This document shows, one piece after another, positions 9,695 through 39,109 of a DNA stretch of 44,593 nt. Origin of the DNA: Candidatus Sigynarchaeum calidifontis (GTDB lineage: Archaea > Asgardarchaeota > Lokiarchaeia > Sigyniarchaeales > Sigyniarchaeaceae); NCBI GenBank assembly GCA_030587475.2, contig JAUQYZ020000164.1, positions 1 through 44,593 of the forward strand, given 5' to 3'. The translations under genes and the position numbers were made by a program. The notes beneath the pieces were generated by a model. It was not told where the DNA came from. It searched no databases and saw only the letters and a program-made list of their open reading frames with translations. The number at the start of each line of letters is the position of its first letter. The stretch's first letter is position 1.

Positions 9695-12600
9695 CTACTG
9701 CAACGGGTTGTGTTCTATGCTGATGGCCGAGAAGACCGTGAAACCGGCCAACATGCCCGCGGCCGCAAGCACGAGGAAAATCCCGGCCACGATCAGCAAG
9801 CTGCTCATGTACGACAGCTTGAGGCCCGCCTCGCTCGACCCGGCACGCCGTGCAAGGGCACCGGGAACTTTAAGAGCCAGCACGTGCAGCACCATCGACC
9901 CGCCCGCGATGGCCAGGAGCCAGGGTAACGTATCCGCCAGCAAGCCGGCGATCAAGATACCGATGGTGATGTTGTTGCCCGAATCCACCTGGGCAGAGTG
10001 GAGAGCCGCGAGGAACCTTGGCAGCAAATAAAAGGCAACCCAGGCCGAAGACGCGGCGACGGCTGGCCACTGGAGCATCCACGCCTTGCCCACGACCCCG
10101 CGGGTCTCCGCCCATGTTAATCCCGCGGAGGACGCCGGGGCGCGGAATGCGAGGGAGTGGCTCGTGGTGATGAGCTCGCTCGCGAGCCACGACACGAGGA
10201 TGGTCAACGGGATGGTCAAAATTTTCACGAGAGGGCCTATCTCATCGAGCATGCTCACGAGCGACAATGACAAGTTGATGTAATGGATGTTGAAGAGCGT
10301 GTAATCCGCGAGGCTCAAGATGAAATAAATCATGCCTGGAGCGAAGATCATCGCGAGAAGAAATGGCTGGAGGATGCTGATGACGCGCGACTGGTAATCC
10401 AACGCCTCGATCGTTCCCGCATCGAAGCGGAACATGCCGGAAAGCGAGGCCCTAGCTTCTCTACTTTTTCCAGCATGCTCGATTTCCGCAGCAGTTTGCG
10501 ATGCTTTCTTGCCACCCGTTCCATGTCCACGCCGTGCATTGACCAAGACGATTGTGCCGGCCGCGAAAAAGCACGCCGCAGCGGCGATCACGACGACCAT
10601 GAACGTGGGGTTGGAGAACGGGAAGTAGGGGCTCTTGTATGCCTTGCGCGAGGGAGATTCGATGAGGTCGATCGCCCCGTTCTGGATGGCCGCGGCAAAC
10701 CCGTCAGACGTCACGTCGAGCTGCCCCTGGCCGTTGATCAAGGCAGTGTTGGATCCTTCGGTCGAGATCGTGTAGTCGTGGCCTGGCCTGCCCCAGTGCG
10801 GGTAGCCGGGGTTCGTGAGGAACTTCTTGCCGAGCGCGTAGACCTCGATCGAGTTCTCGTCGAGGTGCACGTGGCTCTGCGGGAAATACTTGTTGGAAAT
10901 GACGAGATACGTGGAATCGCGACCCCAGCCGCTCCGGAAACAAGCGAGGCCGCTGTCGAAGTATGCGAAGCCGCCGTTGGAACCCACGACAGGTTGACTC
11001 GGCGTGATGGGCGCTTCGTAGGCCACGAGGCGGTAAACGTCGGCCGCCGAGTTCTCGCTCCCGAGGGCAAACGGGAAGTACCAGCGGAGGTTGGAGGCGA
11101 GGACCGGGTTGGTCGCGTTGACCGGGAACGCGGCGATGCTGGCCATGGCACCGAGGCTCCCGTTGACCCCGCAATCCTCGAACACGGGCGTGTATCCCAG
11201 CGGGGTTACCGATGAGACCGTGTAGTTTAGGAACGCGAGGAATCGCGGGTTCGTGAAGTAATCGTACCCGCCGCAATGCCGCAAGGCGAGGTAGAACTTG
11301 ATCGCGTTCTCGAACGTGTAGCGGCCATAGATGTCCCCCTCGTAGCACGGCCCGTTCGGCCGGACGCGGTTTGCAAGGTAGGCATCGTTCGCGTTCTGCG
11401 TGAGCTGGATCCAAGTCGTGTTCTTGAAGAGAAGGCCGCCGATGCCGAGCGCGACGCTGCCCACGACGGCATGGTTGTTCGTCGGGACGGCGCCCGATGC
11501 CGCCGCATCCGCGAGCGCGAGCAGCTTCGGCATGAGCTTCTGCTCGATGGCCGTGCGGTTGGCGGTGCTCATGTTGTTATAAATCATGTCATAGGCAATC
11601 AAGTAAGGATACAAGGTCGTCGACCGCGAGATGAATTGGGCGGTGTCCCATGTCAAGCCTTCTGGTTGAACCGCATCGATGTCCAGCATCGCTTGCACGG
11701 CGCTGTCGATCAAGGCTTGATCCTTGTTGATGAGCCCCTTGAAAGCGTTAACCAGGACACTTTCACCCCAAAGGCTGCTGTACCATGCCTGCCAAGGCCC
11801 AGGGGTGGTCCCGTTGCACTTGGCACGGAGGGCTTCGAGGTCGCTTCCATCGAACAAGAGGTAGGGGTGCGGGCGGGCGGCGAGGGATGCAACGTTGAAG
11901 GGTGTCGACGCGACGACGGGCGCGGGGGAACCCTGCCCGCGGCCCGCTTGAACGAGGTTAGCGCTGGTCGCGTTGTAGAAGCCAGATGTCGATTGCCCTG
12001 AATACACCGTCGAAGCACCGAAGCGGGCAACCGTCGTGTCATCGAAGAGGAACCACTGGAGGTCGTTCGTCGCGTTCAAGCGATACCCGCAATAATTGCC
12101 GGAGATCGTCGCGTTGCCGTCGCTCACCTCGTGAGGCGCCGCTTGATCCGCTGCCTGGAAGAGGAAATGATCGGTGCCGTTCACCGTGATGGCAAGATGG
12201 CCGCCGGGAATGGCTTTGATCGAGACGGGGAGGTGGGGCACGGTCGCGTTGCCGAAGGTCATGACCGTGACGAGGCGGCGGGCAGCCGTGCTTGCCGGGC
12301 GCACCTTGATGTACTCGACGGCGTCGTGGACGTGGTAGTTGTACACGTTGCCGACATGGTTGGTAATCGTGACAGGCGTTCCCGCGAACCGCAGCCGCAT
12401 GCTCGTGCCTGATTGGTCGAAAATCGCCTCCCCGGCCGTGGCGTTGAAGGAAAGCGCGCCATAACTGTGAAAAACGAGATCGATGTTCCTACCTGGCTCG
12501 AACTCGTCGATGATGAGGAAGTAACCTGGATCATCGCTGCCGTCGGGAGGCCGGATGTAGATCACGTTGCGCGTGAAGCCGCCGTTGTCTGGATAGAGAT

Positions 12601-12700
12601 AATTACCAATCAAAACGGGCACGACGCCGGCCGCGCACGCGATCGCGAGCAGCACGGTTCCGGCGGCGATGCCCTTTCTCGATGCGGTTTGGAATGCCAT
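9695..12700 (-). CDS. Membrane-anchored heparinase II/III-family (PL15/17/21-like) polysaccharide lyase with multi-TM C-terminus
   Basis: HPYLLF toroid start, TNNH, YEGDIYGRY, FRSGW, SHVHLDENSIEVYALGKKFLTNPGY, NTALINGQGQ; many N-x-S/T sequons; N-terminal TM and about 6 C-terminal TMs. Confidence 0.8.
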   Translation of the reverse strand: MAFQTASRKGIAAGTVLLAIACAAGVVPVLIGNYLYPDNGGFTRNVIYIRPPDGSDDPGYFLIIDEFEPGRNIDLVFHSYGALSFNATAGEAIFDQSGTSMRLRFAGTPVTITNHVGNVYNYHVHDAVEYIKVRPASTAARRLVTVMTFGNATVPHLPVSIKAIPGGHLAITVNGTDHFLFQAADQAAPHEVSDGNATISGNYCGYRLNATNDLQWFLFDDTTVARFGASTVYSGQSTSGFYNATSANLVQAGRGQGSPAPVVASTPFNVASLAARPHPYLLFDGSDLEALRAKCNGTTPGPWQAWYSSLWGESVLVNAFKGLINKDQALIDSAVQAMLDIDAVQPEGLTWDTAQFISRSTTLYPYLIAYDMIYNNMSTANRTAIEQKLMPKLLALADAAASGAVPTNNHAVVGSVALGIGGLLFKNTTWIQLTQNANDAYLANRVRPNGPCYEGDIYGRYTFENAIKFYLALRHCGGYDYFTNPRFLAFLNYTVSSVTPLGYTPVFEDCGVNGSLGAMASIAAFPVNATNPVLASNLRWYFPFALGSENSAADVYRLVAYEAPITPSQPVVGSNGGFAYFDSGLACFRSGWGRDSTYLVISNKYFPQSHVHLDENSIEVYALGKKFLTNPGYPHWGRPGHDYTISTEGSNTALINGQGQLDVTSDGFAAAIQNGAIDLIESPSRKAYKSPYFPFSNPTFMVVVIAAAACFFAAGTIVLVNARRGHGTGGKKASQTAAEIEHAGKSREARASLSGMFRFDAGTIEALDYQSRVISILQPFLLAMIFAPGMIYFILSLADYTLFNIHYINLSLSLVSMLDEIGPLVKILTIPLTILVSWLASELITTSHSLAFRAPASSAGLTWAETRGVVGKAWMLQWPAVAASSAWVAFYLLPRFLAALHSAQVDSGNNITIGILIAGLLADTLPWLLAIAGGSMVLHVLALKVPGALARRAGSSEAGLKLSYMSSLLIVAGIFLVLAAAGMLAGFTVFSAISIEHNPLQ

Positions 12701-13279: not shown

Positions 13280-16200
13280 TTACGAGTAGATATGCTGGCT
13301 ATACGGCCAGAGGTCTTCGAGAAGGGCTGCGAGATCGGTCCTGAAGGACACCAGCTGGCCGTAATCGTGATTGATGAATTGTGGCCGCTCGCCAACGAGC
13401 TGGTTCAAGCGAACCTCCATCGCGGCGACCCGCCCGAGGAGGCTCGATGGAATCGGCCCGGTCACGTTCTGGTAGGCGACCGTCGTGCGCATGAGCCAGA
13501 TGTACTCGAAATCCTCGACCCCGGCGCTGAAGCTGAGCAGCCGGAGGGAAGGCAAGGGGCGGCTCGTGCGCGGGTCACGGAAGCAGAGCTGCCCGTCGCC
13601 GTTGCCGTCGAACCCGGCGCGGTACGTGTCGTTGCTCGCCGTCATGGACCAGTAAAGGAACCCGTCTGCATTGAACCTGGCGCAGATGTACGGCAGCAGG
13701 CGCGGGTCGTGCCCCGCCTCCCAGAGCTGCATGTTCGGGTACGGGGCGGTCGGGCCGACGCACACGTAGAACCAGTATTCTTGCCCTGCCGCGTGGCGGT
13801 TGGTCACCGCGCTTGGTTCGAAATTGCCGATGACGGGGCACCAGATGTCGACGACGTCGTGGAGGATCGGGTACTCGGCGCGGTACTCTTCGGTCAGCAG
13901 CGTCCGCAGCTTCGAGGTGCCCGAGTGGTAGAGCGCGTTCACGTCGTGGATGTGCTGGTACCGCTCCACGGGCGGCTCGTCCGTCCAGTAATTGTACGGG
14001 AGCTCGACCCACGAGTGAACCCGCCCGATCTGGTCGGTCCACGTCCTGCTCTCGAGGTGCGCGCTCACCGCCTGGACGAAATCCGCCTGGATCTGCCGCC
14101 ACAGCGTGTCGTTCGTGATCGAGGCGGGCCTCGAGGGGAAATACCCCTGGCGAACGCCCGTGAAACCTCGGTCTAGCTGCGCCTGGAACGCGGCATCGTA
14201 GGCGGCCCAATTGAACTCGAACGCGGTCCCGTTCCACCAGTACTGCACCCCGCTGGTGAACGGTATGCCCATGTCGTACTGCGAGATGCGGAGGTAGGAC
14301 AGCTCGTCGAACCATGACGGGGTCGTCCAGCCGCCGCCAAACGCGGTGCGCAGGTGGTTGTCTTGCGGGAGCGTGAAGTTGAAGACGGTCAAGGCAACGG
14401 GCACCGAGTAGGACTTCCCGCTCACGATCAACGTGATCGTGCTGGTGTAACTACCGGCCGACGCGTTCACCGGGACCCGAACGCGCCAAAACAAGTCGAC
14501 GTGCTCGCCACCGGCTCGGGTGATCGCCGGGGGGATCTCCAGCAGTTGATCCGGCTGCTCGTCGACGAGATACGCGACGAGGAACGATTCGACCAGGCCG
14601 TGATCGATGCTCGTGGGAAGCGTGGCATGCACGAAATCGCTGCAGTTCACGCTGGTCACCACGATGGTGCGGCCCTCGCGTGGCGAGACGAGCACGTGCC
14701 ATCCCTCCCACTCGCCCCTCGCGGCCGAGATCTCGATGCGCTGCGCGGCCGGCGCGCTGGCCGACAGGTCGATGCGGAACGACCGCTCGACCTTCACGGT
14801 GGCTTCCACCGACCAGATCCCGAGCACGTCGTCCTTGACGAGCAGCGGCCGCACGCGCGCCGGGTAGACGACCGTGCCCTGGACGATGGCGAACGACGCG
14901 CCGAGGGCGGCGATCATGGCGATGGCAATGATCTTTTGTCTTGCGGGCGGGAGCTTGTTGCGCACGATACCGGCGATCTTGCTCGTCACGGGAAAAAGAG
15001 GCTTTCTCGGGCGAGGCGCTGGCAAGTTACTCGCCAGGAGGGGCTTTCGCGGGTACCGCCACCTGAACACGCGGTACCCGAGATCGACCAGCCAGAAGAC
15101 GATCGTCACGCCGGGGATGATCGTGCTGGCTGTCATGAAGACCAGCTCGAGAAGGACCATCACCTCCGTGATCGGTTCCTGGACCATCTGGCCGTCGTGC
15201 TGGAACCGGTCGACGAAACAGACGAGCAGGAACACGCCGGTGAACGCGAGCGAGAGGAAAATCGTCAAGAAGTAGTTCCGCTCGATGTCGTGCGCCCGGT
15301 ACATGTAAAAATGCGTGGCAAGCGTCGCAGCGATCCAGAACCCGAGCAAGAGGCCGGCGACGATCACGAAGCTCTCCGAGAACGGCAGGGAATAATCGGC
15401 GAGAAACGCGTCGTATTGCTCGAAGATGAAAAAGAACGTCGGGAGCATAAATAGCGATGGCTCCGGTACGATGCTCATCGTGAACAAGCCGAGCAGCATC
15501 CCGAGCAGCATCCACGGGAGCAGCACGAACGCGCGCTCGAAGACCCACTCGTCGGGGACGGTCATGAAGGCGATCGCGGCGATCATGGCGGTCGTCCCCG
15601 CGGTGAACGCCCCGTTCAACACGTTTCGCACCCGTCGCCATGCCAGGTTGCGCGGGTTCACCATCCATGCCCGCTGCATGTCGTGGATCGTGCCGGCCTT
15701 GTCGGCCACCTCGCTGCGGGAGAAGAGCGTGAGCTGGAACAGATTCTTCGCGAGGAACACCCGCCGCTTCCGCAGCACGAGGGAGAACGGTCGCTTCGCC
15801 AGGCTGGCCATGGCGAGCGCGCCCAAGCCGGAGCATGCCGCCGACACCAGCGCCGCGTTCGCGTCGCCGGTTCCGAGGATCAAGGCCCCGTTCAACGTGA
15901 GCACGCCGGTGACGGTTCCTACCAACAAGAACAACCGCAACCGCCACGCGTTGCTGACGAAAAACCACTGCCGCCACCACGAGAGGCTTGCCACCTCCAC
16001 GCGGGGCCCGGGGGCGGGCACCTCCTGGGCAACGAGCAGCCACGTCCCCACGAGTCCCAGCGCGAGCGCGACGCACAGGAGAATGGTGGAGACCCATGGC
16101 TGCATCAAGATGGTCCAGCCAACTGGCCCCTGCCGGTTGCCCGCGAAGAAGGCTTGTATCTCCCCGTAGGCGACCGAGAACCACGCGACGAGCACCGACC

Positions 16201-16525
16201 CCGCGACGAGCATGACGATGGTGAAAGGCCTCGCCCGCGCGGGACTCAAGAAAAACGCGACGATGGCGGCGGTTATCACGAAGAAAACCGCGTAGTAGAC
16301 GATTTGCGGCAGGATGATCTCCCCCATTGGCTCCATGGGCACCTTCGCGAACCGGTCGTCCCACAGCGTGAACGCGAGGTCGTAGGCGCTCTTGCCCTCG
16401 AGAAAGAGGCACGTGATGGCGGCCCAGAAGTTCAACAGCAGCGCTGAAAACACGGAATTCACGAGAAACGACTTGCCTTGCTCCGCCGGGCTCGTGCTGC
16501 CCGGCTCCGTGACCCTTGTGCTCAT
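13280..16525 (-). CDS. Multi-TM membrane domain fused to GH123-like/DUF4091 glycoside hydrolase
   Basis: About 13 hydrophobic segments in the first ~550 aa; ARGEWEG, VFNFTLP, WTDEP, WFYVCVGP..PYPN, GFLYW, GDGQL..PSLRL..GVEDFEY. Confidence 0.8.
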   Translation of the reverse strand: MSTRVTEPGSTSPAEQGKSFLVNSVFSALLLNFWAAITCLFLEGKSAYDLAFTLWDDRFAKVPMEPMGEIILPQIVYYAVFFVITAAIVAFFLSPARARPFTIVMLVAGSVLVAWFSVAYGEIQAFFAGNRQGPVGWTILMQPWVSTILLCVALALGLVGTWLLVAQEVPAPGPRVEVASLSWWRQWFFVSNAWRLRLFLLVGTVTGVLTLNGALILGTGDANAALVSAACSGLGALAMASLAKRPFSLVLRKRRVFLAKNLFQLTLFSRSEVADKAGTIHDMQRAWMVNPRNLAWRRVRNVLNGAFTAGTTAMIAAIAFMTVPDEWVFERAFVLLPWMLLGMLLGLFTMSIVPEPSLFMLPTFFFIFEQYDAFLADYSLPFSESFVIVAGLLLGFWIAATLATHFYMYRAHDIERNYFLTIFLSLAFTGVFLLVCFVDRFQHDGQMVQEPITEVMVLLELVFMTASTIIPGVTIVFWLVDLGYRVFRWRYPRKPLLASNLPAPRPRKPLFPVTSKIAGIVRNKLPPARQKIIAIAMIAALGASFAIVQGTVVYPARVRPLLVKDDVLGIWSVEATVKVERSFRIDLSASAPAAQRIEISAARGEWEGWHVLVSPREGRTIVVTSVNCSDFVHATLPTSIDHGLVESFLVAYLVDEQPDQLLEIPPAITRAGGEHVDLFWRVRVPVNASAGSYTSTITLIVSGKSYSVPVALTVFNFTLPQDNHLRTAFGGGWTTPSWFDELSYLRISQYDMGIPFTSGVQYWWNGTAFEFNWAAYDAAFQAQLDRGFTGVRQGYFPSRPASITNDTLWRQIQADFVQAVSAHLESRTWTDQIGRVHSWVELPYNYWTDEPPVERYQHIHDVNALYHSGTSKLRTLLTEEYRAEYPILHDVVDIWCPVIGNFEPSAVTNRHAAGQEYWFYVCVGPTAPYPNMQLWEAGHDPRLLPYICARFNADGFLYWSMTASNDTYRAGFDGNGDGQLCFRDPRTSRPLPSLRLLSFSAGVEDFEYIWLMRTTVAYQNVTGPIPSSLLGRVAAMEVRLNQLVGERPQFINHDYGQLVSFRTDLAALLEDLWPYSQHIYS

Positions 16526-17165: not shown

Positions 17166-18983
17166 TTACTTGAGTTTTGTGCCGCATTTGTTGCAAAATC
17201 GCATCCGGTTCGACACGGTATAGCCACAGCCAGGGCACTTGATGATGTCCGAGGTTGCTGCAGCTGCGGCTCCACCAGCACCCGCCTTGACTTCAGACTT
17301 TTTCTTCTGCTTTTTCATGTGCAGCAAATCCTCGGGAATGGATGTCTGGAAGAAAATGCTCATACCGCTGGGCCTGGCAGCCGCGCCGCCGCTGCTGACG
17401 GTTTTCTTTGCCGTGAAACCAGCCGAGAACGGGACGGCGCCACCTCCACTACCACCCGCCGGGGTCGCCGCGTGTGATTTGGCCGTGAGCGCGGCGAGGA
17501 AACTGGCCGTCGACGAGCTGCCGGCGGGTTGCGCTGCTGCTGGCTGCGGTGCGGCCTTGGCCGGTGAAGCAGCCGGTGCAGCAGCCGCTGGCTGCTTGGC
17601 TGCCGGCTGCTTGGAGAAGACGACTGGCCCGCTTGCTGTTGCCTTGGCCGCTGGCTTCGCGGCGGCGGGTACCGGGGCAACTTCCTCGATCTCGGGCAGC
17701 GCCTCCTCGACCCTGGGCTGCGCCACGGGGATCGGCTTTGCCTGGCGTGCCGGCACAGCGGGCCTCGTCGGCGGCAGCTCGGGCATCTCGACCGGCGGCT
17801 CCTCGGCCATCTCCTCGGCTGCCGAGAAGAGTGCCGCGGAACTGGCTGCTTTCGGCGCGGGGGCGGGCACGGGTGCCACGGGAGTTGCCACGGGCTTGGG
17901 CTTCACTGCCGGCTGTGCCCTGGGTTGCGGCTGCGCCGCGGGCACGCTCAACGCGATCGGCGTCGGCTTCGGGAGGGGCTGCACCGAGGGAACTGCTGGC
18001 CGGGAAACGGGCTGCACCGCTGGCCGAGCTGGCTGCTGCGCCGGGGTTGCAGGCCGGGCAGCAGGCTGAACTGCTGGCTGTGTCGCGGGCCGGGGCGCGG
18101 GTGCCGCTGCCGGCTTCGGGGGGCTTGTTGCCGCGGGCTTGGGAACGGGCGCGGCGACCGGCTTCGGGAGAGACGCCACTGCTGGTTTCGGTGGGGCTAC
18201 CGCCGCGGGCCTCGGGAGCGGTTGGACCGCGGGCACGGCGGCCGGCCTCGGCGCGGGCGCTGGCGCGGGTGCCGGCGCGGGAACCTCCACGTCGGCATAC
18301 TCGTCAGCGCCGCCGAACTCGTCCGCGACCGGGATCGCCGCGGGCGCTGGCGCGGCTTGCACCTGCGGGATGGCCAGCTGTGGCCTCGCCGCCGCGGCAG
18401 CGGGCGCGGCTGCTGCCATGCCGGGCACCACGCCAAGCTGCTTCATGACGTTCGGGTATTCCTCGGGAGGCATCTTGATGTTCATCATGGCGTAGGCGAG
18501 CCCGTGAAAGCAGTCGCCGACCGATTCGCCGGTCTTGGCCGAGGTCTCGTAGTAGTAGGGGATGCCCATCTGCTTGCAGAACGCCCAAGCCTCCTCCGCC
18601 GACACGACACGTGGCAGGTCGATCTTGTTGCCGACGAGCACGTAGGGCACCTTGCCCGCGTTGGACTCGAGTTCCTCGACCCAGTTCGCCAGGTGGTCGA
18701 ACGATTCCCTGTTCGTGACATCGAACACGAGCAGCGCGCCCATGGCACCGCGATAATAAAGGGGACGCACGAAACTGAACCTTTCTTGACCGCCCGTGTC
18801 CCATATTTGGAGCTTCGCACGCTTCTGCGCTACTTCCAGCAATTTGACAGAGAAATCGACACCGACGGTCATCTTGTACGATTCCTGGAAGTATCCTTGC
18901 GAGAACCGGACGGTCAACGCCGTCTTGCCACAGCCACCATCACCGAGCACGATGCACTTGAATAGGAAGTCATATTCTTCCAT
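17166..18983 (-). CDS. Rab-like small GTPase with long Pro/Ala-rich tail and C-terminal zinc ribbon
   Basis: GDGGCGKT, TVGVDF, KLQIWDTGGQERF, YYRGA, LVFDVT, GNKID, ETSAK; tail ends CPGC..FCNKCG. Confidence 0.93.
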   Translation of the reverse strand: MEEYDFLFKCIVLGDGGCGKTALTVRFSQGYFQESYKMTVGVDFSVKLLEVAQKRAKLQIWDTGGQERFSFVRPLYYRGAMGALLVFDVTNRESFDHLANWVEELESNAGKVPYVLVGNKIDLPRVVSAEEAWAFCKQMGIPYYYETSAKTGESVGDCFHGLAYAMMNIKMPPEEYPNVMKQLGVVPGMAAAAPAAAAARPQLAIPQVQAAPAPAAIPVADEFGGADEYADVEVPAPAPAPAPAPRPAAVPAVQPLPRPAAVAPPKPAVASLPKPVAAPVPKPAATSPPKPAAAPAPRPATQPAVQPAARPATPAQQPARPAVQPVSRPAVPSVQPLPKPTPIALSVPAAQPQPRAQPAVKPKPVATPVAPVPAPAPKAASSAALFSAAEEMAEEPPVEMPELPPTRPAVPARQAKPIPVAQPRVEEALPEIEEVAPVPAAAKPAAKATASGPVVFSKQPAAKQPAAAAPAASPAKAAPQPAAAQPAGSSSTASFLAALTAKSHAATPAGGSGGGAVPFSAGFTAKKTVSSGGAAARPSGMSIFFQTSIPEDLLHMKKQKKKSEVKAGAGGAAAAATSDIIKCPGCGYTVSNRMRFCNKCGTKLK

Positions 18984-21140: not shown

Positions 21141-21524
21141 TCAATCGTTCCCGGGGTCCTCGCCAGCCTCTTCTGCAGCAGGCTTGGCGTTCTTCAAGAT
21201 CTCCGACGTGAGCGGGAATGACTTGTCATCGACGACCGCCCACGTCCCGGCCTTGCCGAGGGAGAGCTGGGGCTTGTTGTTCCATTCCTTGACCCAGCCG
21301 TCCGTGATCTCGATGACCCGGCCGATATTTTTTTCCATGGCCGAGACATCCTTCCCGAAGGCGGAATATTCGATAGTCCCGGTCTCGTCGCCGACCAGGA
21401 AGCTACAGACGTAGAGCGGGTATCCTTTCTTCGATTGAACCTTTCGTGGAGGTCCTTGGCTGCACACGCGCACGCGCAAGCTCGCGTTCGTGTTCGGCAC
21501 GAGATCCTTGACTTTCACCGGCAT
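21141..21524 (-). CDS. Single OB-fold ssDNA-binding protein (SSB/RPA)
   Basis: KVKDL, LVGDETGTI, GWVKEWNNKPQLSLG; acidic tail. Confidence 0.85.
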   Translation of the reverse strand: MPVKVKDLVPNTNASLRVRVCSQGPPRKVQSKKGYPLYVCSFLVGDETGTIEYSAFGKDVSAMEKNIGRVIEITDGWVKEWNNKPQLSLGKAGTWAVVDDKSFPLTSEILKNAKPAAEEAGEDPGND

Positions 21525-21610: not shown

Positions 21611-22156
21611 TCAAGGGTTGTTGGCGAGCATCTGCTTGACCAGGTCCATGAAGACCGTTTCCACGTTCTCCCCGGTCTTCGATGATATCTCGTGGTACGA
21701 GCTGATGCCGTGTTTCTTCATGAACGCGTCGATGCTTTCTTTTTTTATTAGGCGCGCGTCACCCTTGCAGAGGTCCTTCTTTGTGCCGGCGAGCACGACG
21801 GGGATCGGTTTCTTTGTCCCGAGCTTGTCGCTCTCGCCCGTGTTGGCGCGGACGATTTCCATCCACTCGTCGAGTCCCTTGAAGCTGTCGGGCCGGTTGA
21901 GGTCGAACAAGAGGATCGCGCCGGCCGAGCCGATGCAGAACGGGCCGAGCAGGGTGCGGAACCGCTCCTCGCCCGCGAAATCCCATATCTGGAGGCGTAT
22001 CTTGCCTTGATCCTCTGTCTGGACATCTTTAATGGCGAACGCGACGCCGATGGTACTTTTCGTCTCCATGAACTTGTTTTCGGTAAAACGTAAGACCAGG
22101 CACGTCTTGCCAACGGATGCCTCGCCGCAGATGGGCACCTTGAATTTGACTTGCAA
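21611..22156 (-). CDS. Rab-like small GTPase
   Basis: GEASVGKT, STIGVAF, RLQIWDFAGEERF, LLFDL, GTKKDL, EISSKTGENV; TTG start after GGGGTTGA. Confidence 0.9.
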   Translation of the reverse strand: MQVKFKVPICGEASVGKTCLVLRFTENKFMETKSTIGVAFAIKDVQTEDQGKIRLQIWDFAGEERFRTLLGPFCIGSAGAILLFDLNRPDSFKGLDEWMEIVRANTGESDKLGTKKPIPVVLAGTKKDLCKGDARLIKKESIDAFMKKHGISSYHEISSKTGENVETVFMDLVKQMLANNP

Positions 22157-22322
22157 CGTGATGCATCAACCCCGCGTTTTTTAATCGCCGGCCGCTCGAG
22201 CGCAGCTCGCGCCGTGGATGCTAGGATCATGCCATGGCTGGCTAATAAAGTAAGCCGCGGGAACCTTATTAACTCACAACTGATCATAACAAATAACGAT
22301 AACGAGTGGCGAAAAGAGAATC

Positions 22323-23867
22323 ATGCAGTTTCACATCGGCTTTGACGAGTCTCACAAGGAACGCGGGAAGCTCGGCAGCAATTACCGCACGCTCCGCCAG
22401 CTTCTCGAAAGCGAGGGCTTCGGATGCTGGGAATTCTCATCCTTTCCCATCACGCGACAGTCCCTCCAGAATTATGACATCCTGGTCTTTGCATGCACCG
22501 ATTCTAGCAAGTTTTCCGCCGAGGAGATCGAGGCGATAGCCACCTGGGTCAAGGAGGATGGCGGGGGGATCCTCATGCTCTCCCACGCGGGCGGCGATCG
22601 CGGCCGGCGCACGAACATGACCGAGCTGGCGACCCAGTTCGGCATGCTCTTCGAGAATGACCAGGTCCTGGACGACATGAACAACTACGGCATCGACAAC
22701 ATGCCCAACATAAAGACCTTCCCCAACCCGCACCCCATCATCGAGGGAATCACGTCGATCTGCTACCGTGCAGGCTGCAGCGTGTCGATCGTGGGCATGG
22801 CGCAGTCGATCGCGCTCACGAACCCGAGCTCGATCCCGGGCAACGTCACGATCATCGCCGCGTCGGAACCGGGCGAGGGCAAGGCCGTCTGCATCGGGTC
22901 GTACGAGATATTCCGCGACGAGATCAACGGCGGGATCACCAACCCGGCATCGCACGCGCAACTTGCCAAGAACATCTTCTCGTGGCTCGTGACACCCAAG
23001 CGGGTCATGCTGCGCGAGGGCGGGGCGGTGCCCGCGTCGGGCCCGGGCGCGGCGAGCACGCCGCCTGCCAGCTCCGGGGCATTCGATCCCTACGGCGTCA
23101 TGAAGCCGCAAGGGGTGCCTTCACAAGATCACGGCGGAAAACTCGTCCAGATCACGTCCATCCACGATCTATTCCTCGAGATGCAGAACATCGTAAAGGA
23201 AATCGACATGATCCGTGCCCGGGTCATGAACGTGTTCGGCGTCGTCTCGGCTCTCGATAGCGGGGAAGGGAGCGCTCCCACGGCACCGCATGCAACGGCT
23301 CCTGCTCCCGCCCCGGTGGCGGCACCGGCGAAGAAAGCGGAAGCGCCCACCAAGAAAAGCGAGGAACCTCCCGCGGGGCCTCCCCCGAGCAAGGATGACT
23401 TGCTGGCCATGATCGCGGGGATAAAGGGGAAAAAAACCGAGCCGGGTGCAATTTCCCCCGCAGAGACCGCACCAAGCGGCGTCTCGATGTCCAGTCTTCT
23501 CTCCGAGCTCAAGGCCGAGGGCAAAAAGAAGGAACTCAGCCCCGAGGACTTGAAGGCCCTCGAGGTTTCGCAGCCTGGCCTCGGGAAGGTCGCCGAGGAG
23601 AGTCCACCCGCCCCATCCGCTCCAAAAGAATACGAGCTCACGTCCACCGACAAGCGCAAGAGCAAGGCCGATCTCGAGGACGAGATCGACAAGCTTGAAG
23701 CCAAGATCAAGTCGACCGAGAACCTCAAGGCCTTCATCGACAAGCTGTTCAAGGATGGCAAGAAGTCCAAGGATGACTACGAGCGCGAGGCGAAGCGGCT
23801 GGCTTCCGACATCGAGAACGCGAAGGCGAAGATGGAAGCTTATAAAAAGCTCGCCGCGTCGAAGTAG
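22323..23867 (+). CDS. GIFT (GldG/IFT52)-domain protein with Pro-rich linker and C-terminal helical hairpin/coiled coil
   Basis: FDESHKE, KFSAEEIEAIATWVKEDGGGILML..GGD...TN, FGM.FEND, GKAVCIGSYEIF.D, NIFSWL; no signal peptide. Confidence 0.75.
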   Translation: MQFHIGFDESHKERGKLGSNYRTLRQLLESEGFGCWEFSSFPITRQSLQNYDILVFACTDSSKFSAEEIEAIATWVKEDGGGILMLSHAGGDRGRRTNMTELATQFGMLFENDQVLDDMNNYGIDNMPNIKTFPNPHPIIEGITSICYRAGCSVSIVGMAQSIALTNPSSIPGNVTIIAASEPGEGKAVCIGSYEIFRDEINGGITNPASHAQLAKNIFSWLVTPKRVMLREGGAVPASGPGAASTPPASSGAFDPYGVMKPQGVPSQDHGGKLVQITSIHDLFLEMQNIVKEIDMIRARVMNVFGVVSALDSGEGSAPTAPHATAPAPAPVAAPAKKAEAPTKKSEEPPAGPPPSKDDLLAMIAGIKGKKTEPGAISPAETAPSGVSMSSLLSELKAEGKKKELSPEDLKALEVSQPGLGKVAEESPPAPSAPKEYELTSTDKRKSKADLEDEIDKLEAKIKSTENLKAFIDKLFKDGKKSKDDYEREAKRLASDIENAKAKMEAYKKLAASK

Positions 23868-23923
23868 CCATTTCCCTTCCCCTAGAGTTTTTGTACCGCC
23901 TACCTTTTTTTTCCGTGATTCCC

Positions 23924-25012
23924 ATGCAAAGCAAGGGTGGAAAAATAGCGAGAATCGCGGTCGTCGAAGGCGACGGTATCGGGCCCGAGATCATCCGAGA
24001 GGCCAAGAAGATCCTCGGCGTGGTGCAAGATTACACGTCGATGCAATTCGAGTTCACGGACGCGCCCGCTGGAGGCGAGGAGTACAAGAAGACCGGCTCG
24101 TCCTTGCCCGATACTTCCTTGAAAGCCATGGAAGCATCCGATGCCATCCTCTACGGCGCGATCGGCTTGCCGGATCTCCCGCAAGGCGTCGCCGAGTTGG
24201 CACTCCTCAAGATCCGCCAGCACTTCGACGAGTACGTCAACTTGCGCCCCGTGAAGCTGTTCGAGTCTGTGCGGGACATGTGCCCGCTCAAGGACCAGTA
24301 CGTGGGCAAGGGCATCGACATGGTCATCGTCCGCGAGAACACGGAAAGCCTCTATGCCAAGATCGGCGGACAAGTGCGCGACGACACTGCCGTCAACCTC
24401 ATGGTTTACACGAAAACCGGCGTCGACCGCGTCATCAAGTACGCGTTCGAGCTCGCGAAGAACAGTAAATCATATAAAAAAGTCACGTCGGTGGACAAGG
24501 CGAATATCTTGTCCACATCGCAGATGTGGCGCAACAATTTCCACGAGATCGCCAAGGGTTATCCAGGCATCGCGATCGAGGATTACTACGTCGACGCGTT
24601 TTGCCAGGCCTTGATCCGCAAGCCGCATGACTACCAGGTTGTCGTGACCGAGAACATGTTCGGGGACATCGTCTCGGACGAGGCCGCGTACCTCCTCGGT
24701 TCGCTCGGGATGGCCCCGAGCGCCAACATCAACCCGAACGGCATCTCCATGTACGAGCCAATCCACGGCAGTGCCCCGGACATCGCGGGCAAGGGCATCG
24801 CCAACCCGATCGGCACGATCCTCGCCGCCAAGCTCATGCTCTCCGAGACCTTCAAGGAACACGCGACCGCAAGGGCGATCGAGGAAGCCGTCGAGGCATC
24901 GCTGCTCAAGGGCCGCACCCCGGACGTGGCGAAGCAGGGATTGCCCACGCTCACGACATCGGAGATGGGCGATCTCGTCGCCGCGGAATTAAAAAGGATA
25001 TTGAAAAAGTAG
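23924..25012 (+). CDS. leuB: 3-isopropylmalate dehydrogenase (or related beta-decarboxylating dehydrogenase)
   Basis: GDGIGPEI, NLRPVK, IVRENTE, VDKANIL, NMFGDIVSD, YEPIHGSAPDIAGKGIANP. Confidence 0.8.
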   Translation: MQSKGGKIARIAVVEGDGIGPEIIREAKKILGVVQDYTSMQFEFTDAPAGGEEYKKTGSSLPDTSLKAMEASDAILYGAIGLPDLPQGVAELALLKIRQHFDEYVNLRPVKLFESVRDMCPLKDQYVGKGIDMVIVRENTESLYAKIGGQVRDDTAVNLMVYTKTGVDRVIKYAFELAKNSKSYKKVTSVDKANILSTSQMWRNNFHEIAKGYPGIAIEDYYVDAFCQALIRKPHDYQVVVTENMFGDIVSDEAAYLLGSLGMAPSANINPNGISMYEPIHGSAPDIAGKGIANPIGTILAAKLMLSETFKEHATARAIEEAVEASLLKGRTPDVAKQGLPTLTTSEMGDLVAAELKRILKK

Positions 25013-25034: not shown

Positions 25035-26279
<1,245 letters not shown>

Positions 26280-26376: not shown

Positions 26377-26754
26377 TCACTCCTTGACGAGCACGCCGTT
26401 GATGACGGCGACTTGCCCGGGCCGGCTCGTGACGCGTACCTTGCCGAGCTCGGTCTTGAGGAGGGTGTTCCGCGTGATGACCTTCCGTCGGTTTAAATCC
26501 TTGTTGGAAGGGTTCTCAATCACGTCTTGAATCTTCACGCGCTTGGTCGTGGCACCATCCGTCACGTTGACGAATTGATCGTGGTAAAGTTTGTTTTTTA
26601 TGTTTCCCCCGCGGACGCGCTGGCGCTTGACCGAGCGCTCGCCCATCGTGGTCTCGATTGGATAGCGACCCATCTCGCGCTTGTGCTTCTTGACTGACTG
26701 GTGAAGCCGGCCGCCGGAAGGCTTCTTTTTTAAACCTTTTTGCCATATGGGCAT
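26377..26754 (-). CDS. rps8e: 30S ribosomal protein S8e
   Basis: KKPSGGR, KREMGR, RVRGGNIK, NPSN..RRKVIT, VTSRPGQ. Confidence 0.96.
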   Translation of the reverse strand: MPIWQKGLKKKPSGGRLHQSVKKHKREMGRYPIETTMGERSVKRQRVRGGNIKNKLYHDQFVNVTDGATTKRVKIQDVIENPSNKDLNRRKVITRNTLLKTELGKVRVTSRPGQVAVINGVLVKE

Positions 26755-31443: not shown

Positions 31444-32337
31444 TCATTTCTTGATGCTGCAGGCCCAACAAGACGGGTTCTTGGTCTTCTCGATGAAGGT
31501 GAAGGTGTTCCTCGTCCCGTCGTAGCGGAGCTCCTTGCCGTAGACGGGGGGCCCGACGTTCTCGTTCCAAGTGCCTTGTTTCTTGTACTGGTCAAGGCCG
31601 AGCAAGATCTTCACGATTTGCTGGGCTTGCAGCGCCCCGATGATGGACGTGGTCGTGATGATGTTGGCCATCTTCATCTCGGTGAAGCCGTCCTCCTTGG
31701 CGATCTCTTGTCCCGTGCACGAGAACTTCTTGAACATGTTATCAAGATCCTGGGACGACATGCTGCACTGGAGGCACGGGCAGTCCTTCACTTGCGGGAC
31801 CACGCAAAAAATGCTGCCGTACCAGCCATCGATGCCCGAGTCGACGAATGGTAAATCGTAGTAGTACGAGAACGAGTTGAGCTGGAGGCGGGCTTCCATG
31901 TTGTCGAGGCATGACGCGGTCGCGTTGCATTCCTTGTAGATGTCATCCTTCACGTCCTCGATCTTGCCCACGATCGGGATGATTTTCGTTCGCCCGAATT
32001 CCATGGCATTCCTTGCAACGATTTCTGCCTTGAACCGCTTCTGTTCCACGTCGGCTTCCTTGAAGAACACGCATCGGTTCAAGTTCGACCGGTCCACCGT
32101 GTCAAAATCCACGAGATAGATCTTGCCGACGCCCATCAGCGTGAGATTCTTCACGAGCTCGTTCCCGGTCGCGCCAGCGCCAACAACGAGCACCGTGCTG
32201 GCGCGAATCTTCTCCTGATCCCAGCCCTTGAGGCGTTTTTGACGGTCGAACAAGTCCTGGTTGATGTTTTCGACCCCCAGAACCGGAATATCGTCCACGG
32301 CGCATCCGGTACTTCCAGCTTCCTTTTTTTCGCTCAT
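31444..32337 (-). CDS. ThiF/E1-family ubiquitin-like activating enzyme (UBA3-like)
   Basis: FDRQ, VVGAGATGNELVKNL, DFDTVDRSNLNR, CLDNMEAR, CLQC...FSCT (putative catalytic Cys), C-terminal CWAC; start MSEKK at 32337. Confidence 0.92.
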   Translation of the reverse strand: MSEKKEAGSTGCAVDDIPVLGVENINQDLFDRQKRLKGWDQEKIRASTVLVVGAGATGNELVKNLTLMGVGKIYLVDFDTVDRSNLNRCVFFKEADVEQKRFKAEIVARNAMEFGRTKIIPIVGKIEDVKDDIYKECNATASCLDNMEARLQLNSFSYYYDLPFVDSGIDGWYGSIFCVVPQVKDCPCLQCSMSSQDLDNMFKKFSCTGQEIAKEDGFTEMKMANIITTTSIIGALQAQQIVKILLGLDQYKKQGTWNENVGPPVYGKELRYDGTRNTFTFIEKTKNPSCWACSIKK

Positions 32338-32408
32338 GGGAGGACCTCGCACGGCTGGTTCACGAGAAGCAAATCGAATCGCTTCACGCGTGTCCGAATC
32401 GAAAGAAC

Positions 32409-32888
32409 TCAACTCTTCTTTTCTCTGAGAACGGCATAGCTCACGTAGTGGTAGTGCTTTTCGTCGTCTATCTTGAAAAAAGCCCTCTCGCCACGGATGG
32501 GATCCACGACCAGGGCGACGTGGAACCCCTTGTTGAACATTTCCATGGTCTTGATGTCGACGGAACTCAAGAAAACGCCCAGGTTCGGGTGTGAATGCCA
32601 CCAGCCCGTGATGATCGAGCCCGGGTATTCCTTATCCTTCTTGGCTGACATCTCGCCGACAGCGCCGTCGATCACCTGGGTAAATATGGGTGATGTTTCG
32701 ATGAGTTCCGAGAATAAGAAACCGTTAATCATGACGTATTCTTTTCCCTTGTGCTTGTAAGCGTTGCCGACGAGCATCCCGATGATCTCGTACTTGTTGT
32801 TCTTGCAACGCGCCTCGATCTCGTCGAGAATGTGCTTCTGGATGTACACGTCATGCACGTACGCGGTCTTCTTGTCTTCGTCTGCCAT
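32409..32888 (-). CDS. JAB/MPN+ (Rpn11-like) metalloprotease/deubiquitinase
   Basis: EIIGMLVG, GWWHSHPNLGVFLSSVD (HxHx7Sx2D), ALVVDP. Confidence 0.93.
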   Translation of the reverse strand: MADEDKKTAYVHDVYIQKHILDEIEARCKNNKYEIIGMLVGNAYKHKGKEYVMINGFLFSELIETSPIFTQVIDGAVGEMSAKKDKEYPGSIITGWWHSHPNLGVFLSSVDIKTMEMFNKGFHVALVVDPIRGERAFFKIDDEKHYHYVSYAVLREKKS

Positions 32889-37504: not shown

Positions 37505-39109
37505 TCACCCGAAGGGCATCGTGAAGCCCATAGTGAGCCCCGACACGATGAAATTGCACAAGATGATGGCGAGTGAAAGCACGCGGATCACGTTCATGAC
37601 CACCCGCTTCTTGCCCTCAGTGGCGTCCACCTCGGCGACATATTCCACTTCGACTTGCTTTCCATCGAGGTTCCGCTCGCTCAGCTCGAACGTAACGTGG
37701 TCGATCTTGCCATCCTCGTCCGAATCCGTGACCTGGTAATCCTTGTGTTCGGCAAGCTCCACGAGCGACTTGTCCCGGTCGTCATTGTTGGGAACCATCA
37801 AGACTTTCACCACTTGCTCCGCGTTGGCCTTTCTTAACTCGCACGTCTTTTCCTCCTTGGTGAGGACGAACCGTTCCGTGATGGTCTTCTTTTCTTTGCG
37901 GGGCTTGATGAAATGGTTGAGGATCTCGTAGACACACTTGTCCCCGTCAAAAATCGGAAGAGGCATCATGTTGAAGATCGTGACGCTGATGGCAATCTGG
38001 AACAGCCAGAAGGTTTCGAGGAATAGCGTGTTCGGGGCCGTGCCACCGAGCCAGTTTCCGAGCCAGTCCTTTGGCGGCCACCATTCCTCGGACTGGATGC
38101 CGATGAAAGCAATAGATTTGTTTTTAAAATCCGAAGGGGGTATGCCTGTATACACGGTGATGTTTTGGTAGACGTTATTGCGCAAAATCAAGCAATAGAG
38201 GGTGTCATTCTGGGTAACGTTATAGTACAAGTAATACGAAAGGGCCAAGCGGACGTTTTCCACGACGGAGCCGTTGAACTTGTAATTATTGAGCGCTGTC
38301 CCGTTAATTTTCAAAAGAACATCGCCCGGATACAAGTTCCCTTGATTATGCCCGCCTTGGGATGACGGATAGACGTTGGTAATGTATAAGCCAATGGGTG
38401 CACCCCAGGAGAGCGAGACGACGGCCGTGAAGTTAACCAGGAGCAAGAGGGCAATGCCCGCGAGGATCGCATTCGAAAACGAACCCGCTGCAGCGAGGCG
38501 TGTCTTTTGCCAGCCGGAGAATTTCCCATGCTTGTATGCTTTCTCGTCGATCTCGACGAAGGCGCCAAATCCGATGATGAAGAACGCGCCCATGCCGAGC
38601 ACCCCCGTCGATTTCACGGGAATGCCATCTGAATTCGCGGCGATCGCGTGGGAAAACTCGTGCACGGTGAGCACGAATAGGATCGGGATGATGAGGTACG
38701 TGAAGGTGCTGAAATCGATCGTGAGCCCTGGCACGAGGGGCGTTATCTGGGATGATGGTTCTGGGTTCTCGATATGCGTCAATAAGGTAACCAGGTTGGA
38801 TATGAAATACCAGAAGCCGTAAACGGTAAACGAGAACGAAACGAAAATCCCCGTAGTAAATATCACCTTCCATGTTCGAGGCGATTTCTTGGCAATCTTG
38901 TATAACAGTCGATTGAGCCGGGTTGTCTTCAGCATCGCGAGGAACGGGAAGAACACCGAAAGCGCCTTCGATTTCTTGAAGCGCCCGAGAACAAGGATAA
39001 GCAGGGCTATGGCGGCCCAGAAAACGACCGCGATGATGAAGAACGGGTTCGTCACGAGGCTGGCAAGAAACATCGCGATGTCGTTCTCGGTTTGGAAAAT
39101 GGCTGACAC
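37505..39109 (-). CDS. Site-2 protease (M50) with PDZ-like domain
   Basis: VHEFSHA, GAFVE, AAAGSFSN, PGDVLLKING, FNMMPLPIFDGD. Confidence 0.92.
   Translation of the reverse strand: MSAIFQTENDIAMFLASLVTNPFFIIAVVFWAAIALLILVLGRFKKSKALSVFFPFLAMLKTTRLNRLLYKIAKKSPRTWKVIFTTGIFVSFSFTVYGFWYFISNLVTLLTHIENPEPSSQITPLVPGLTIDFSTFTYLIIPILFVLTVHEFSHAIAANSDGIPVKSTGVLGMGAFFIIGFGAFVEIDEKAYKHGKFSGWQKTRLAAAGSFSNAILAGIALLLLVNFTAVVSLSWGAPIGLYITNVYPSSQGGHNQGNLYPGDVLLKINGTALNNYKFNGSVVENVRLALSYYLYYNVTQNDTLYCLILRNNVYQNITVYTGIPPSDFKNKSIAFIGIQSEEWWPPKDWLGNWLGGTAPNTLFLETFWLFQIAISVTIFNMMPLPIFDGDKCVYEILNHFIKPRKEKKTITERFVLTKEEKTCELRKANAEQVVKVLMVPNNDDRDKSLVELAEHKDYQVTDSDEDGKIDHVTFELSERNLDGKQVEVEYVAEVDATEGKKRVVMNVIRVLSLAIILCNFIVSGLTMGFTMPFG

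Follow-up and report, generated by a model that had tools for sequence, protein, structure and literature searches.

We analysed the whole of a 44,593-nucleotide contig of Candidatus Sigynarchaeum calidifontis (Asgardarchaeota, Lokiarchaeia; assembly GCA_030587475.2, contig JAUQYZ020000164.1, forward strand), referred to here as the window, and within it a gene whose product begins with a GIFT domain resembling that of IFT52, a component of the intraflagellar transport (IFT) complex IFT-B. The gene (P0001, 22323-23867 on the + strand, from open reading frame (ORF) calls and Pfam) encodes a soluble protein of 514 amino acids (aa), and an orthologue at 89% identity is found in Ca. Sigynarchaeum springense, to which the host, a Lokiarchaeon, is close. 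An earlier inspection of the letters of the window, below called the sequence-only reading, had proposed that this protein and the product of a head-to-head Rab-like gene form a proto-IFT-B or trafficking module. Its observation that the protein has neither a signal peptide nor a transmembrane helix is borne out, as both were sought in the 514-aa protein and none was found (best 19-residue hydropathy 1.29, N-terminal score 0.2).

The GIFT domain occupies aa 1-228 (22323-23006, + strand) and has a class I glutamine-amidotransferase-like fold, as judged from a predicted local distance difference test (pLDDT) score of 88-98, Foldseek, fold Z scores and Pfam. A central helix (aa 280-312; 23160-23258, + strand), defined by DSSP and the pLDDT of the model, is probably a short coiled coil and has Pro/Ala/Gly/Ser-rich linkers of low model confidence on either side. 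The long disordered linker after it (aa 313-440; 23259-23642, + strand; pLDDT 42-56) is rich in Pro, Ala, Lys and Glu (Pro 16%, Ala 17%) and leads to a C-terminal two-helix hairpin (aa 441-514; 23643-23864, + strand; model pLDDT 90) that we describe as steadiness-box/SHOCT-like. The linker contains PTAP/PSAP motifs (aa 319 and 431), which we considered as ligands of a ubiquitin E2 variant (UEV) domain and rejected: they occur in 2 of 54 family rows against 1.6 expected, and they are not kept in the 89%-identical orthologue.

Relation of the head to the IFT52 N-terminal domain

It is virtually certain that the head belongs by homology to the GIFT superfamily, which was described by Beatson and Ponting in 2004 (as cited in PMC4818760) and whose other members (GldG/ABC_transp_aux, PF09822; DUF4350, PF14258; OST48/Wbp1; the site-1 protease domain) have this fold in common. 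The head matches the Pfam model IFT52_GIFT (PF23355) with an E-value of 2.5e-12 and 46.9 bits against a cut-off of 27.2, and the same model is matched by all 54 members of the family that we compiled; matches of family members to other GIFT superfamily models are weak (38, 28 and 6 of 54 rows). A search of the PDB with the protein itself gave only IFT52 chains below E 0.8, and a profile of 54 relatives found only IFT52 chains among the solved GIFT structures (E 1e-28 to 4e-23). The head model superimposes on mouse IFT52N (5FMS) with a Z of 28.6, the root-mean-square deviation being 1.9 over 214 aa, and Foldseek against 5FMR gave E 5e-18 with a TM score of 0.81-0.92 depending on the target; the next fold matches are OST48 (Z 19.9), STM3548 (Z 18.4) and the site-1 protease (Z 18.3), ThuA-like folds also following in the list. 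Among solved structures IFT52 is thus the closest relative, ahead of OST48 and the site-1 protease. The IFT52 motifs that the sequence-only reading had listed are real, since the Pfam match exceeds its cut-off and the motif columns align with those of 14 eukaryotic IFT52s.

The likeness to the IFT52 N-domain (PF23355; 5FMR, 5FMS) includes the fold, 22-26% identity, solubility and the N-terminal position, as well as the motifs GG[DE]..TN, P.N.P and GS...F.D and a Pro-rich linker followed by a small helical tail after the head. Residues G90-G91-D/E92, N98, P172, S193 and F197 are common to the Asgard family and IFT52 and rare in exported GIFTs. Compared with the superfamily members named above, the family has no signal peptide or transmembrane helix, scores far better with IFT52 than with GldG, DUF4350, OST48 or the site-1 protease domain, and forms an Asgard clade of its own (95-96 in the Shimodaira-Hasegawa-like approximate likelihood-ratio test).

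A catalytic class I glutamine amidotransferase has a Cys at the nucleophile elbow with a His-Glu dyad, and the GIFT head has no Cys at the presumed elbow. That position, residue 88, was assigned by alignment and from what is known of the fold rather than from coordinates; it is His in 17, Asn in 10 and Asp in 4 of 37 rows. IFT52N is itself a non-catalytic interaction domain (PMC4818760). The family also has conserved polar residues of its own with no IFT52 counterpart, namely E13-R14-G15, C58-P-D60, C152 and Y194.

The 514-aa protein is nevertheless not an IFT52. Residues K130 and R204 of IFT52 are required for IFT-B2 binding (PMC4818760); in the Asgard family the K130 column, with its HPKE insert, is a gap in 37/37 rows, and the R204 column is Arg in 2/37 and Val175 in the 514-aa protein. 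Unlike IFT52, the Asgard protein also has no central and C-terminal domains, and its tail is a two-helix hairpin: the IFT88/IFT70- and IFT46-binding domains PF23352 and PF21178 were not seen in a Pfam scan of the family, and against a profile of the IFT52 C-terminal half no member of the family exceeded 7 bits and the host genome had no match, with IFT52 controls reaching up to 260 or more. The same profile rules out the tail as an IFT52 C-domain. None of IFT46, IFT57, IFT38 and IFT81 was found above cut-off in five genomes (four of them single-contig), in a search that had no positive control and did not extend to IFT88 and IFT70. The proto-IFT-B part of the sequence-only reading is not supported, given these differences.

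Placement and distribution of the family

When 268 Asgard genomes were searched with an IFT52 profile, the top matches were mostly members of the 514-aa GIFT family, over the head only. Eukaryotic IFT52s were collected by scanning metagenomes for a short motif and by a search of proteins, and two unrooted trees were built, one of 101 rows under LG+C20 and one of 72 rows with long branches removed and a different aligner; neither bacterial stand-alone GIFTs nor outgroups (OST48, site-1 protease, TCAF and GldG) are among the rows, and the support mark was set at 95/80. In the first tree IFT52 groups with the soluble Asgard GIFTs, that is, the 514-aa family together with Lokiarchaeia paralogues, at 91/88; of 1000 bootstrap trees, 927 draw the sister of IFT52 from these soluble Asgard GIFTs, and none has a sister that takes in the mostly exported group. 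In the second tree IFT52 is sister to the 514-aa family at 94/87. These sequence comparisons suggest, at somewhat better than even chances, that the soluble Asgard GIFTs are nearest to IFT52, and the 514-aa family, or else the surrounding group of soluble Asgard GIFTs, would be the current best candidate source of the IFT52 head. An IFT52 query against plasmids gave no match.

Of 400 Asgard genomes, 290 have a match to the head at E<=1e-20, almost all of them in a single copy, and they belong to about 20 families (numbered here with the prefix f; G, L and C mark genomes, loci and contigs). In families f8-f12 and f14-f17 the only GIFT matches were weaker and more remote. Orthologues are present in two cultured species, P. 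syntrophicum (DSAG12_01155) and Ca. L. ossiferum (NEF87_003477), and UniRef automatically labels both as IFT52 GIFT domain proteins. We found no paper that names IFT52 together with Asgard archaea, treats the Asgard GIFT family or ties it to IFT52, and the accessible portions of the text and supplements of PMC10307638, 10.1101/2024.07.03.601958 and PMC10936438 hold no mention of IFT52 or GIFT that we could find. The premise that prokaryotic GIFTs are usually exported is partly true: at least three further soluble-looking GIFT genes above the Pfam cut-off lie in the host genome, and short stand-alone GIFT clusters also occur in bacteria.

Some loci of the family have further features. In two f4 genomes the main gene is followed immediately downstream by another, stand-alone GIFT gene (L030:3013-3681, L045:2967-3665), and on contig C93 the ORF directly upstream of the GIFT paralogue (L311:109-2661) is 851 aa long and has weak matches to MIT and TPR. 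In families f20 and f21 (L057:156-920; L052, L054, L055, L056) a kept upstream neighbour matches Pfam ARPC4, Arp2/3 subunit 4, above cut-off (E 3e-7).

The C-terminal hairpin

[quoted passage not shown] The tail of the GIFT protein shares with these proteins, with UEV-Vps23 (PMC10936438) and with OST1 (8WHN) a terminal helical hairpin with the same turn pattern, and the whole protein shares with Vps23 the order of head, Pro-rich linker, coil and hairpin; it differs from UEV-Vps23 in having a GIFT head in place of the UEV domain and a tail below the Pfam Vps23_core cut-off. A profile of the hairpin scored 13/13 Asgard Vps23_core (PF09454) matches at 15-35 bits, two annotated ones being true UEV-Vps23 proteins, and hhalign of the tail against these matches gave P 95% and E 2e-8, with 4% for the reversed control. 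The top PDB match of the tail is the cytoplasmic domain of OST1 of P. syntrophicum (MK-D1; 8WHN, profile E 0.022, fold Z 10.1), and the hairpin profile weakly picked up ribophorin I of the host genome. On balance, homology of the tail to the steadiness box is marginally the more probable conclusion. The hairpin is present in families f1-f5, f20, f21, f30 and f31, that is, in Lokiarchaeia and four other families, and was not found in f6, f13, f18, f24, f26, f27, f29, f32, f33 or the main copies of f7.

Several observations count against this homology and the adaptor role built on it. About half of the Asgard families with a GIFT gene have no hairpin, and the fold scores are tied, 8WHN (Z 10.1) being accompanied by Vps23 (2F66_A, Z 9.2) and many other hairpins. 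UEV-Vps23 was not found in the host genome, which is 89% complete. The hairpin signal moreover rests on a short turn motif, and 1 of 30 block shuffles scored nearly as high (maximum 47.3 against 48.6); because of these two points we call the tail steadiness-box/SHOCT-like only. Pfam Vps23_core found no match in 7 tails, which gave one weak VPS28 match (E 5e-4). No ESCRT genes were seen among the annotated conserved neighbours of the GIFT gene, and no mention of a GIFT/IFT52 fusion was found in the accessible text and supplements of PMC10936438.

At least six other proteins of the host end in a similar hairpin (L309:2026-3867, L310:2060-4210 and contigs C53, C12, C63 and C207). They include ribophorin I and several unannotated proteins of 1339-2591 aa, and are candidate partners.

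The neighbouring Rab-like gene

As the sequence-only reading had described, the GIFT gene (+ strand) and a Rab-like small GTPase gene (21611-22156, - strand; 181 aa, TTG start; Pfam Ras E 1.6e-37) are divergent ORFs separated by 166 bp (22157-22322, from a sequence scan). The spacer has TATA-like boxes on the GIFT side (22265-22272, + strand) and on the Rab side (22185-22179, - strand), which from their sequence may act as promoters. A shared promoter, as had been suggested, is not established: with TATA-like boxes at both ends, the spacer measures 166, 407 and 128 bp in the three genomes that have the pair, and between the host and G002 only the GIFT-proximal ~120 bp is conserved, the Rab side not being kept. 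The longer spacer of G002 (L015:4690-5000) holds ~250 bp of AT-rich extra sequence and an apparent remnant copy of the 5′ end of the Rab gene.

The Rab was also described as atypical. Its G3 DFAGEE and G4 GTKKD are indeed there, alongside a G1 of GEASVGKT, but these motifs are a trait of a Lokiarchaeia subfamily: the [GA]TKxD form of G4 is found in 13 of 41 host Rab-likes, and Glu stands at the catalytic Gln position in 16/16 aligned relatives. The protein fits the description of archaeal Rab-like GTPases, which have Ras-family G1-G5 motifs, Rab-type best matches and no C-terminal prenylation cysteine (PMC4915359); it too has Rab-type G motifs and a short C-terminus from which the cysteine or prenylation site is absent, and its subfamily differs from the others in having Glu for the catalytic Gln and Thr/Ser/Ala for the Asn of G4. 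The best 60 of its 774 PDB matches are of Rab2/14/11/32 type, a Thorarchaeota Rab also being among the best, with no IFT22 or IFT27 among them. The host genome has about 41 Rab-like and 71 small-GTPase-like ORFs, and the orthologous clade of this Rab spans families f1-f3 (support 89).

The head-to-head pair is found in G000, G002 and G003 only, all of family f1 (two genera; Rab identity 49-83%), and there a whole block is kept, comprising the Rab, the OB gene, a second Rab, the GIFT gene, leuB, icd and rps8e. In a fourth f1 genome, G001, the gene is broken at a GC shift and the pair is not assessable. The 1.5 kb upstream of the GIFT gene hold no Rab in any of 59 other genomes (three loci are cut upstream by contig ends), and in two complete genomes the Rab orthologue lies 2.7 Mb (G146) and 1.55 Mb (G138) from it. 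The GIFT-Rab pair is thus block synteny and the Rab an ordinary Lokiarchaeia Rab-like paralogue. Because the whole block is kept, the pair is unlinked in other genomes and the orthologues are megabases away, we read the Rab as a local neighbour, very probably an incidental one, and the functional pairing of an IFT52-like scaffold with an atypical Rab is not supported. A complex prediction for the full-length GIFT protein with the Rab (GTP, Mg) scored 0.00, gave no verdict and is counted neither way.

The remainder of the block lies on both sides. Downstream of the Rab on the same strand is an OB-fold (SSB/RPA-like) gene (21141-21524, - strand; weak Pfam Ssb-like_OB match, E 0.004), followed by the second Rab-like gene (17166-18983, - strand; 605 aa, a Ras domain with a C-terminal zinc ribbon, Pfam Ras E 6e-53), which belongs to a different Rab clade from the 181-aa Rab. 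The Ras domain of this second Rab is 87-98% identical in G002 and G003 over the compared stretch, and is more conserved than the small Rab. Directly downstream of the GIFT gene is an isopropylmalate/homoisocitrate dehydrogenase-like (leuB-like) gene (23891-25012, + strand; Pfam Iso_dh), then icd (25035-26279, - strand) and rps8e (26377-26754, - strand); families f1 and f3 both have the leuB-like gene close to the GIFT gene, a wider spread than that of the Rab adjacency. Elsewhere in the window, heparinase II/III-like and GH123 glycoside hydrolase domains occur in two large ORFs (9695-12700 and 13280-16525, - strand), and there are also a ThiF/E1-like gene (31444-32601) and an M50 peptidase (37505-39109).

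A possible looser link to small GTPases

While the local pair is not conserved, GIFT heads are found with small GTPases in other settings. An in-frame fusion of a GIFT head to a Rab (L271:6001-7407, P0145; also P0391-P0394, L294, L317 and L274) occurs in a Lokiarchaeia lineage, apparently f2, as five protein clusters of 64-78% identity, one of them on three independent contigs. The fusion is a duplicate beside the ordinary GIFT gene, its head being nested in the Lokiarchaeia main clade, and G133 holds both an ordinary GIFT gene and an 84%-identical fusion-type head. In two assemblies the fusion lies between a 423-aa gene, with a weak JAB match in one, and DNA polymerase B. The fusion P0145 was rejected as a Rosetta stone for the neighbour Rab, the fused Rab being of another clade (split at 97). 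Genus g10 has a Gtr1/RagA-type GTPase on the same strand as the GIFT gene and 36-57 bp upstream of it (L281:7989-9140 in G146; L037, L040, L044), in family f5 a Rag-type GTPase lies divergently 0.6-1.1 kb upstream (L053:3-872, L060), and in G131 a Rab follows a GIFT paralogue by 128 bp.

Against a background in which 4-6.5% of the genes of the host lie within 0.7-1.5 kb of a small GTPase, the main copies have such a neighbour in 3 of ~25 contexts (p 0.09-0.22), and with paralogues and the fusion the count is 5 of ~33 (p 0.01-0.06, post hoc). No small-GTPase neighbour was found at the loci examined outside class Lokiarchaeia. We regard the looser GIFT-GTPase link as a lead, not a result.

Proposed function and alternative explanations

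The family combines an IFT52-type head, linkers, a short helix and a hairpin with near single-copy presence, and the IFT parts named above are missing from it. A role as a non-catalytic adaptor is quite probable by analogy with IFT52, and the chances are about even that the protein is, more fully, a vertically inherited soluble Asgard adaptor or scaffold. In such a mechanism the head would bind a protein partner without catalysis, as the IFT52 head does, the flexible linkers would give reach, and the coil and hairpin may dock on itself or on hairpin-bearing proteins of the ESCRT-I-type steadiness-box or membrane-sorting kind, so that the GIFT protein would tether a client to a membrane-sorting assembly.

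Were the GIFT gene and its head-to-head Rab a co-regulated proto-IFT-B unit, like IFT52 with IFT22/IFT27, the divergent arrangement in three genomes of two genera would be explained, with a Rab that has diverged to 49-83% identity. This is highly improbable, however, as what is kept is the block and not the pair alone, the genes (Rab orthologues included) are unlinked in all other genomes examined, the spacer varies between 128 and 407 bp with its Rab side not conserved, and neither IFT22/27 among the Rab's best 60 PDB matches nor IFT46/57/38/81 in the five genomes searched were found. Within IFT-B itself, moreover, the IFT52 head and IFT88 bind IFT57/38, and IFT22/27 sit in the IFT81/74 subcomplex (PMC4818760). 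A weaker form, in which the family is an effector or scaffold of small GTPases in general and its partner changes from lineage to lineage, would draw on the in-frame fusion, on G133 with its two kinds of head, on the Rag-type genes upstream in g10 and f5 and on the Rab after the paralogue in G131. We consider it unlikely, given that the fused Rab is of a different clade from the neighbour Rab, that many host Rab-likes have long extensions, so that Rab fusions are common, that proximity is near background in the main copies and post hoc in the extended set, and that GTPase neighbours are confined to Lokiarchaeia at the loci examined. The head might instead be an amidotransferase- or ThuA-like metabolic enzyme or a ligand sensor, its likeness to IFT52 being due to shared ancestry only. 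The conserved residues that IFT52 lacks (E13-R14-G15, C58-P-D60, C152, Y194), the often metabolic neighbours in Lokiarchaeia (leuB-like, leuA-like, nucleotidyl transferase) and the presence of ThuA-like and STM3548 folds in the match list are consistent with this, but the presumed elbow has His, Asn or Asp and no Cys, the neighbours vary between classes, and a long linker, coil and hairpin would better suit a tether, which makes an enzyme or sensor decidedly improbable.

Where IFT52 obtained its head is a separate matter, and its descent from a different GIFT lineage of prokaryotes, whether a bacterial stand-alone or an exported one, with the 514-aa family as one GIFT branch among many, is compatible with any of these functions. 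No branch placing IFT52 reaches 95/80 and the IFT52 stem is long (1.75); the approximately unbiased (AU) test under LG+F+G4 (p 0.28-0.58) rejects no placement of IFT52, exported GIFTs included; the prokaryotic rows were collected with an Asgard query, so that sampling is biased; and among the atlas neighbours of IFT52, stand-alone GIFT clusters of bacteria and Thermoplasmatota score level with an Asgard cluster (0.92-0.93). Because of the support, the unselective AU test, the sampling and these ties, an Asgard source of the IFT52 head is only favoured, and the IFT52-like ancestry of the sequence-only reading has moderate support from the trees with no decision from the AU test. Mean identity to IFT52 also differs little between the groups (25.8 against 23.5%), some exported GIFTs equal the Asgard family on the IFT52 profile (82-87 bits), and the family was not found at comparable scores in f8-f12 and f14-f17. 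Three host paralogues each score slightly higher on the IFT52 Pfam model than the 514-aa gene, which therefore does not stand out by its score. On the other side stand the 1000 bootstraps, none of which has an IFT52 sister including the mostly exported group, and the signature residues common to IFT52 and the Asgard family. Another origin is thus a substantial possibility, at somewhat less than even chances.

Significance

GIFT domains and the automatic database labels were known already; new are trees that include real IFT52 sequences, a test of synteny by which the Rab pairing drops out, the analysis of the tail and the GIFT-Rab fusion. A tempting false lead is thereby removed, as with some 70 small GTPases per genome an adjacent Rab means little. 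Where among prokaryotes the non-coatomer parts of intraflagellar transport come from is a standing question. It is doubtful, though conceivable, that the family is both the direct sister of IFT52 and a membrane-sorting adaptor linking small GTPases or cargo to ESCRT-I-type hairpin proteins; were this true, an archaeal trafficking adaptor would have been recruited to become the core scaffold of ciliary transport. With an Asgard family that is soluble, nearly single-copy and placed beside IFT52 in trees, the question of this prokaryotic source becomes testable in two cultured species.

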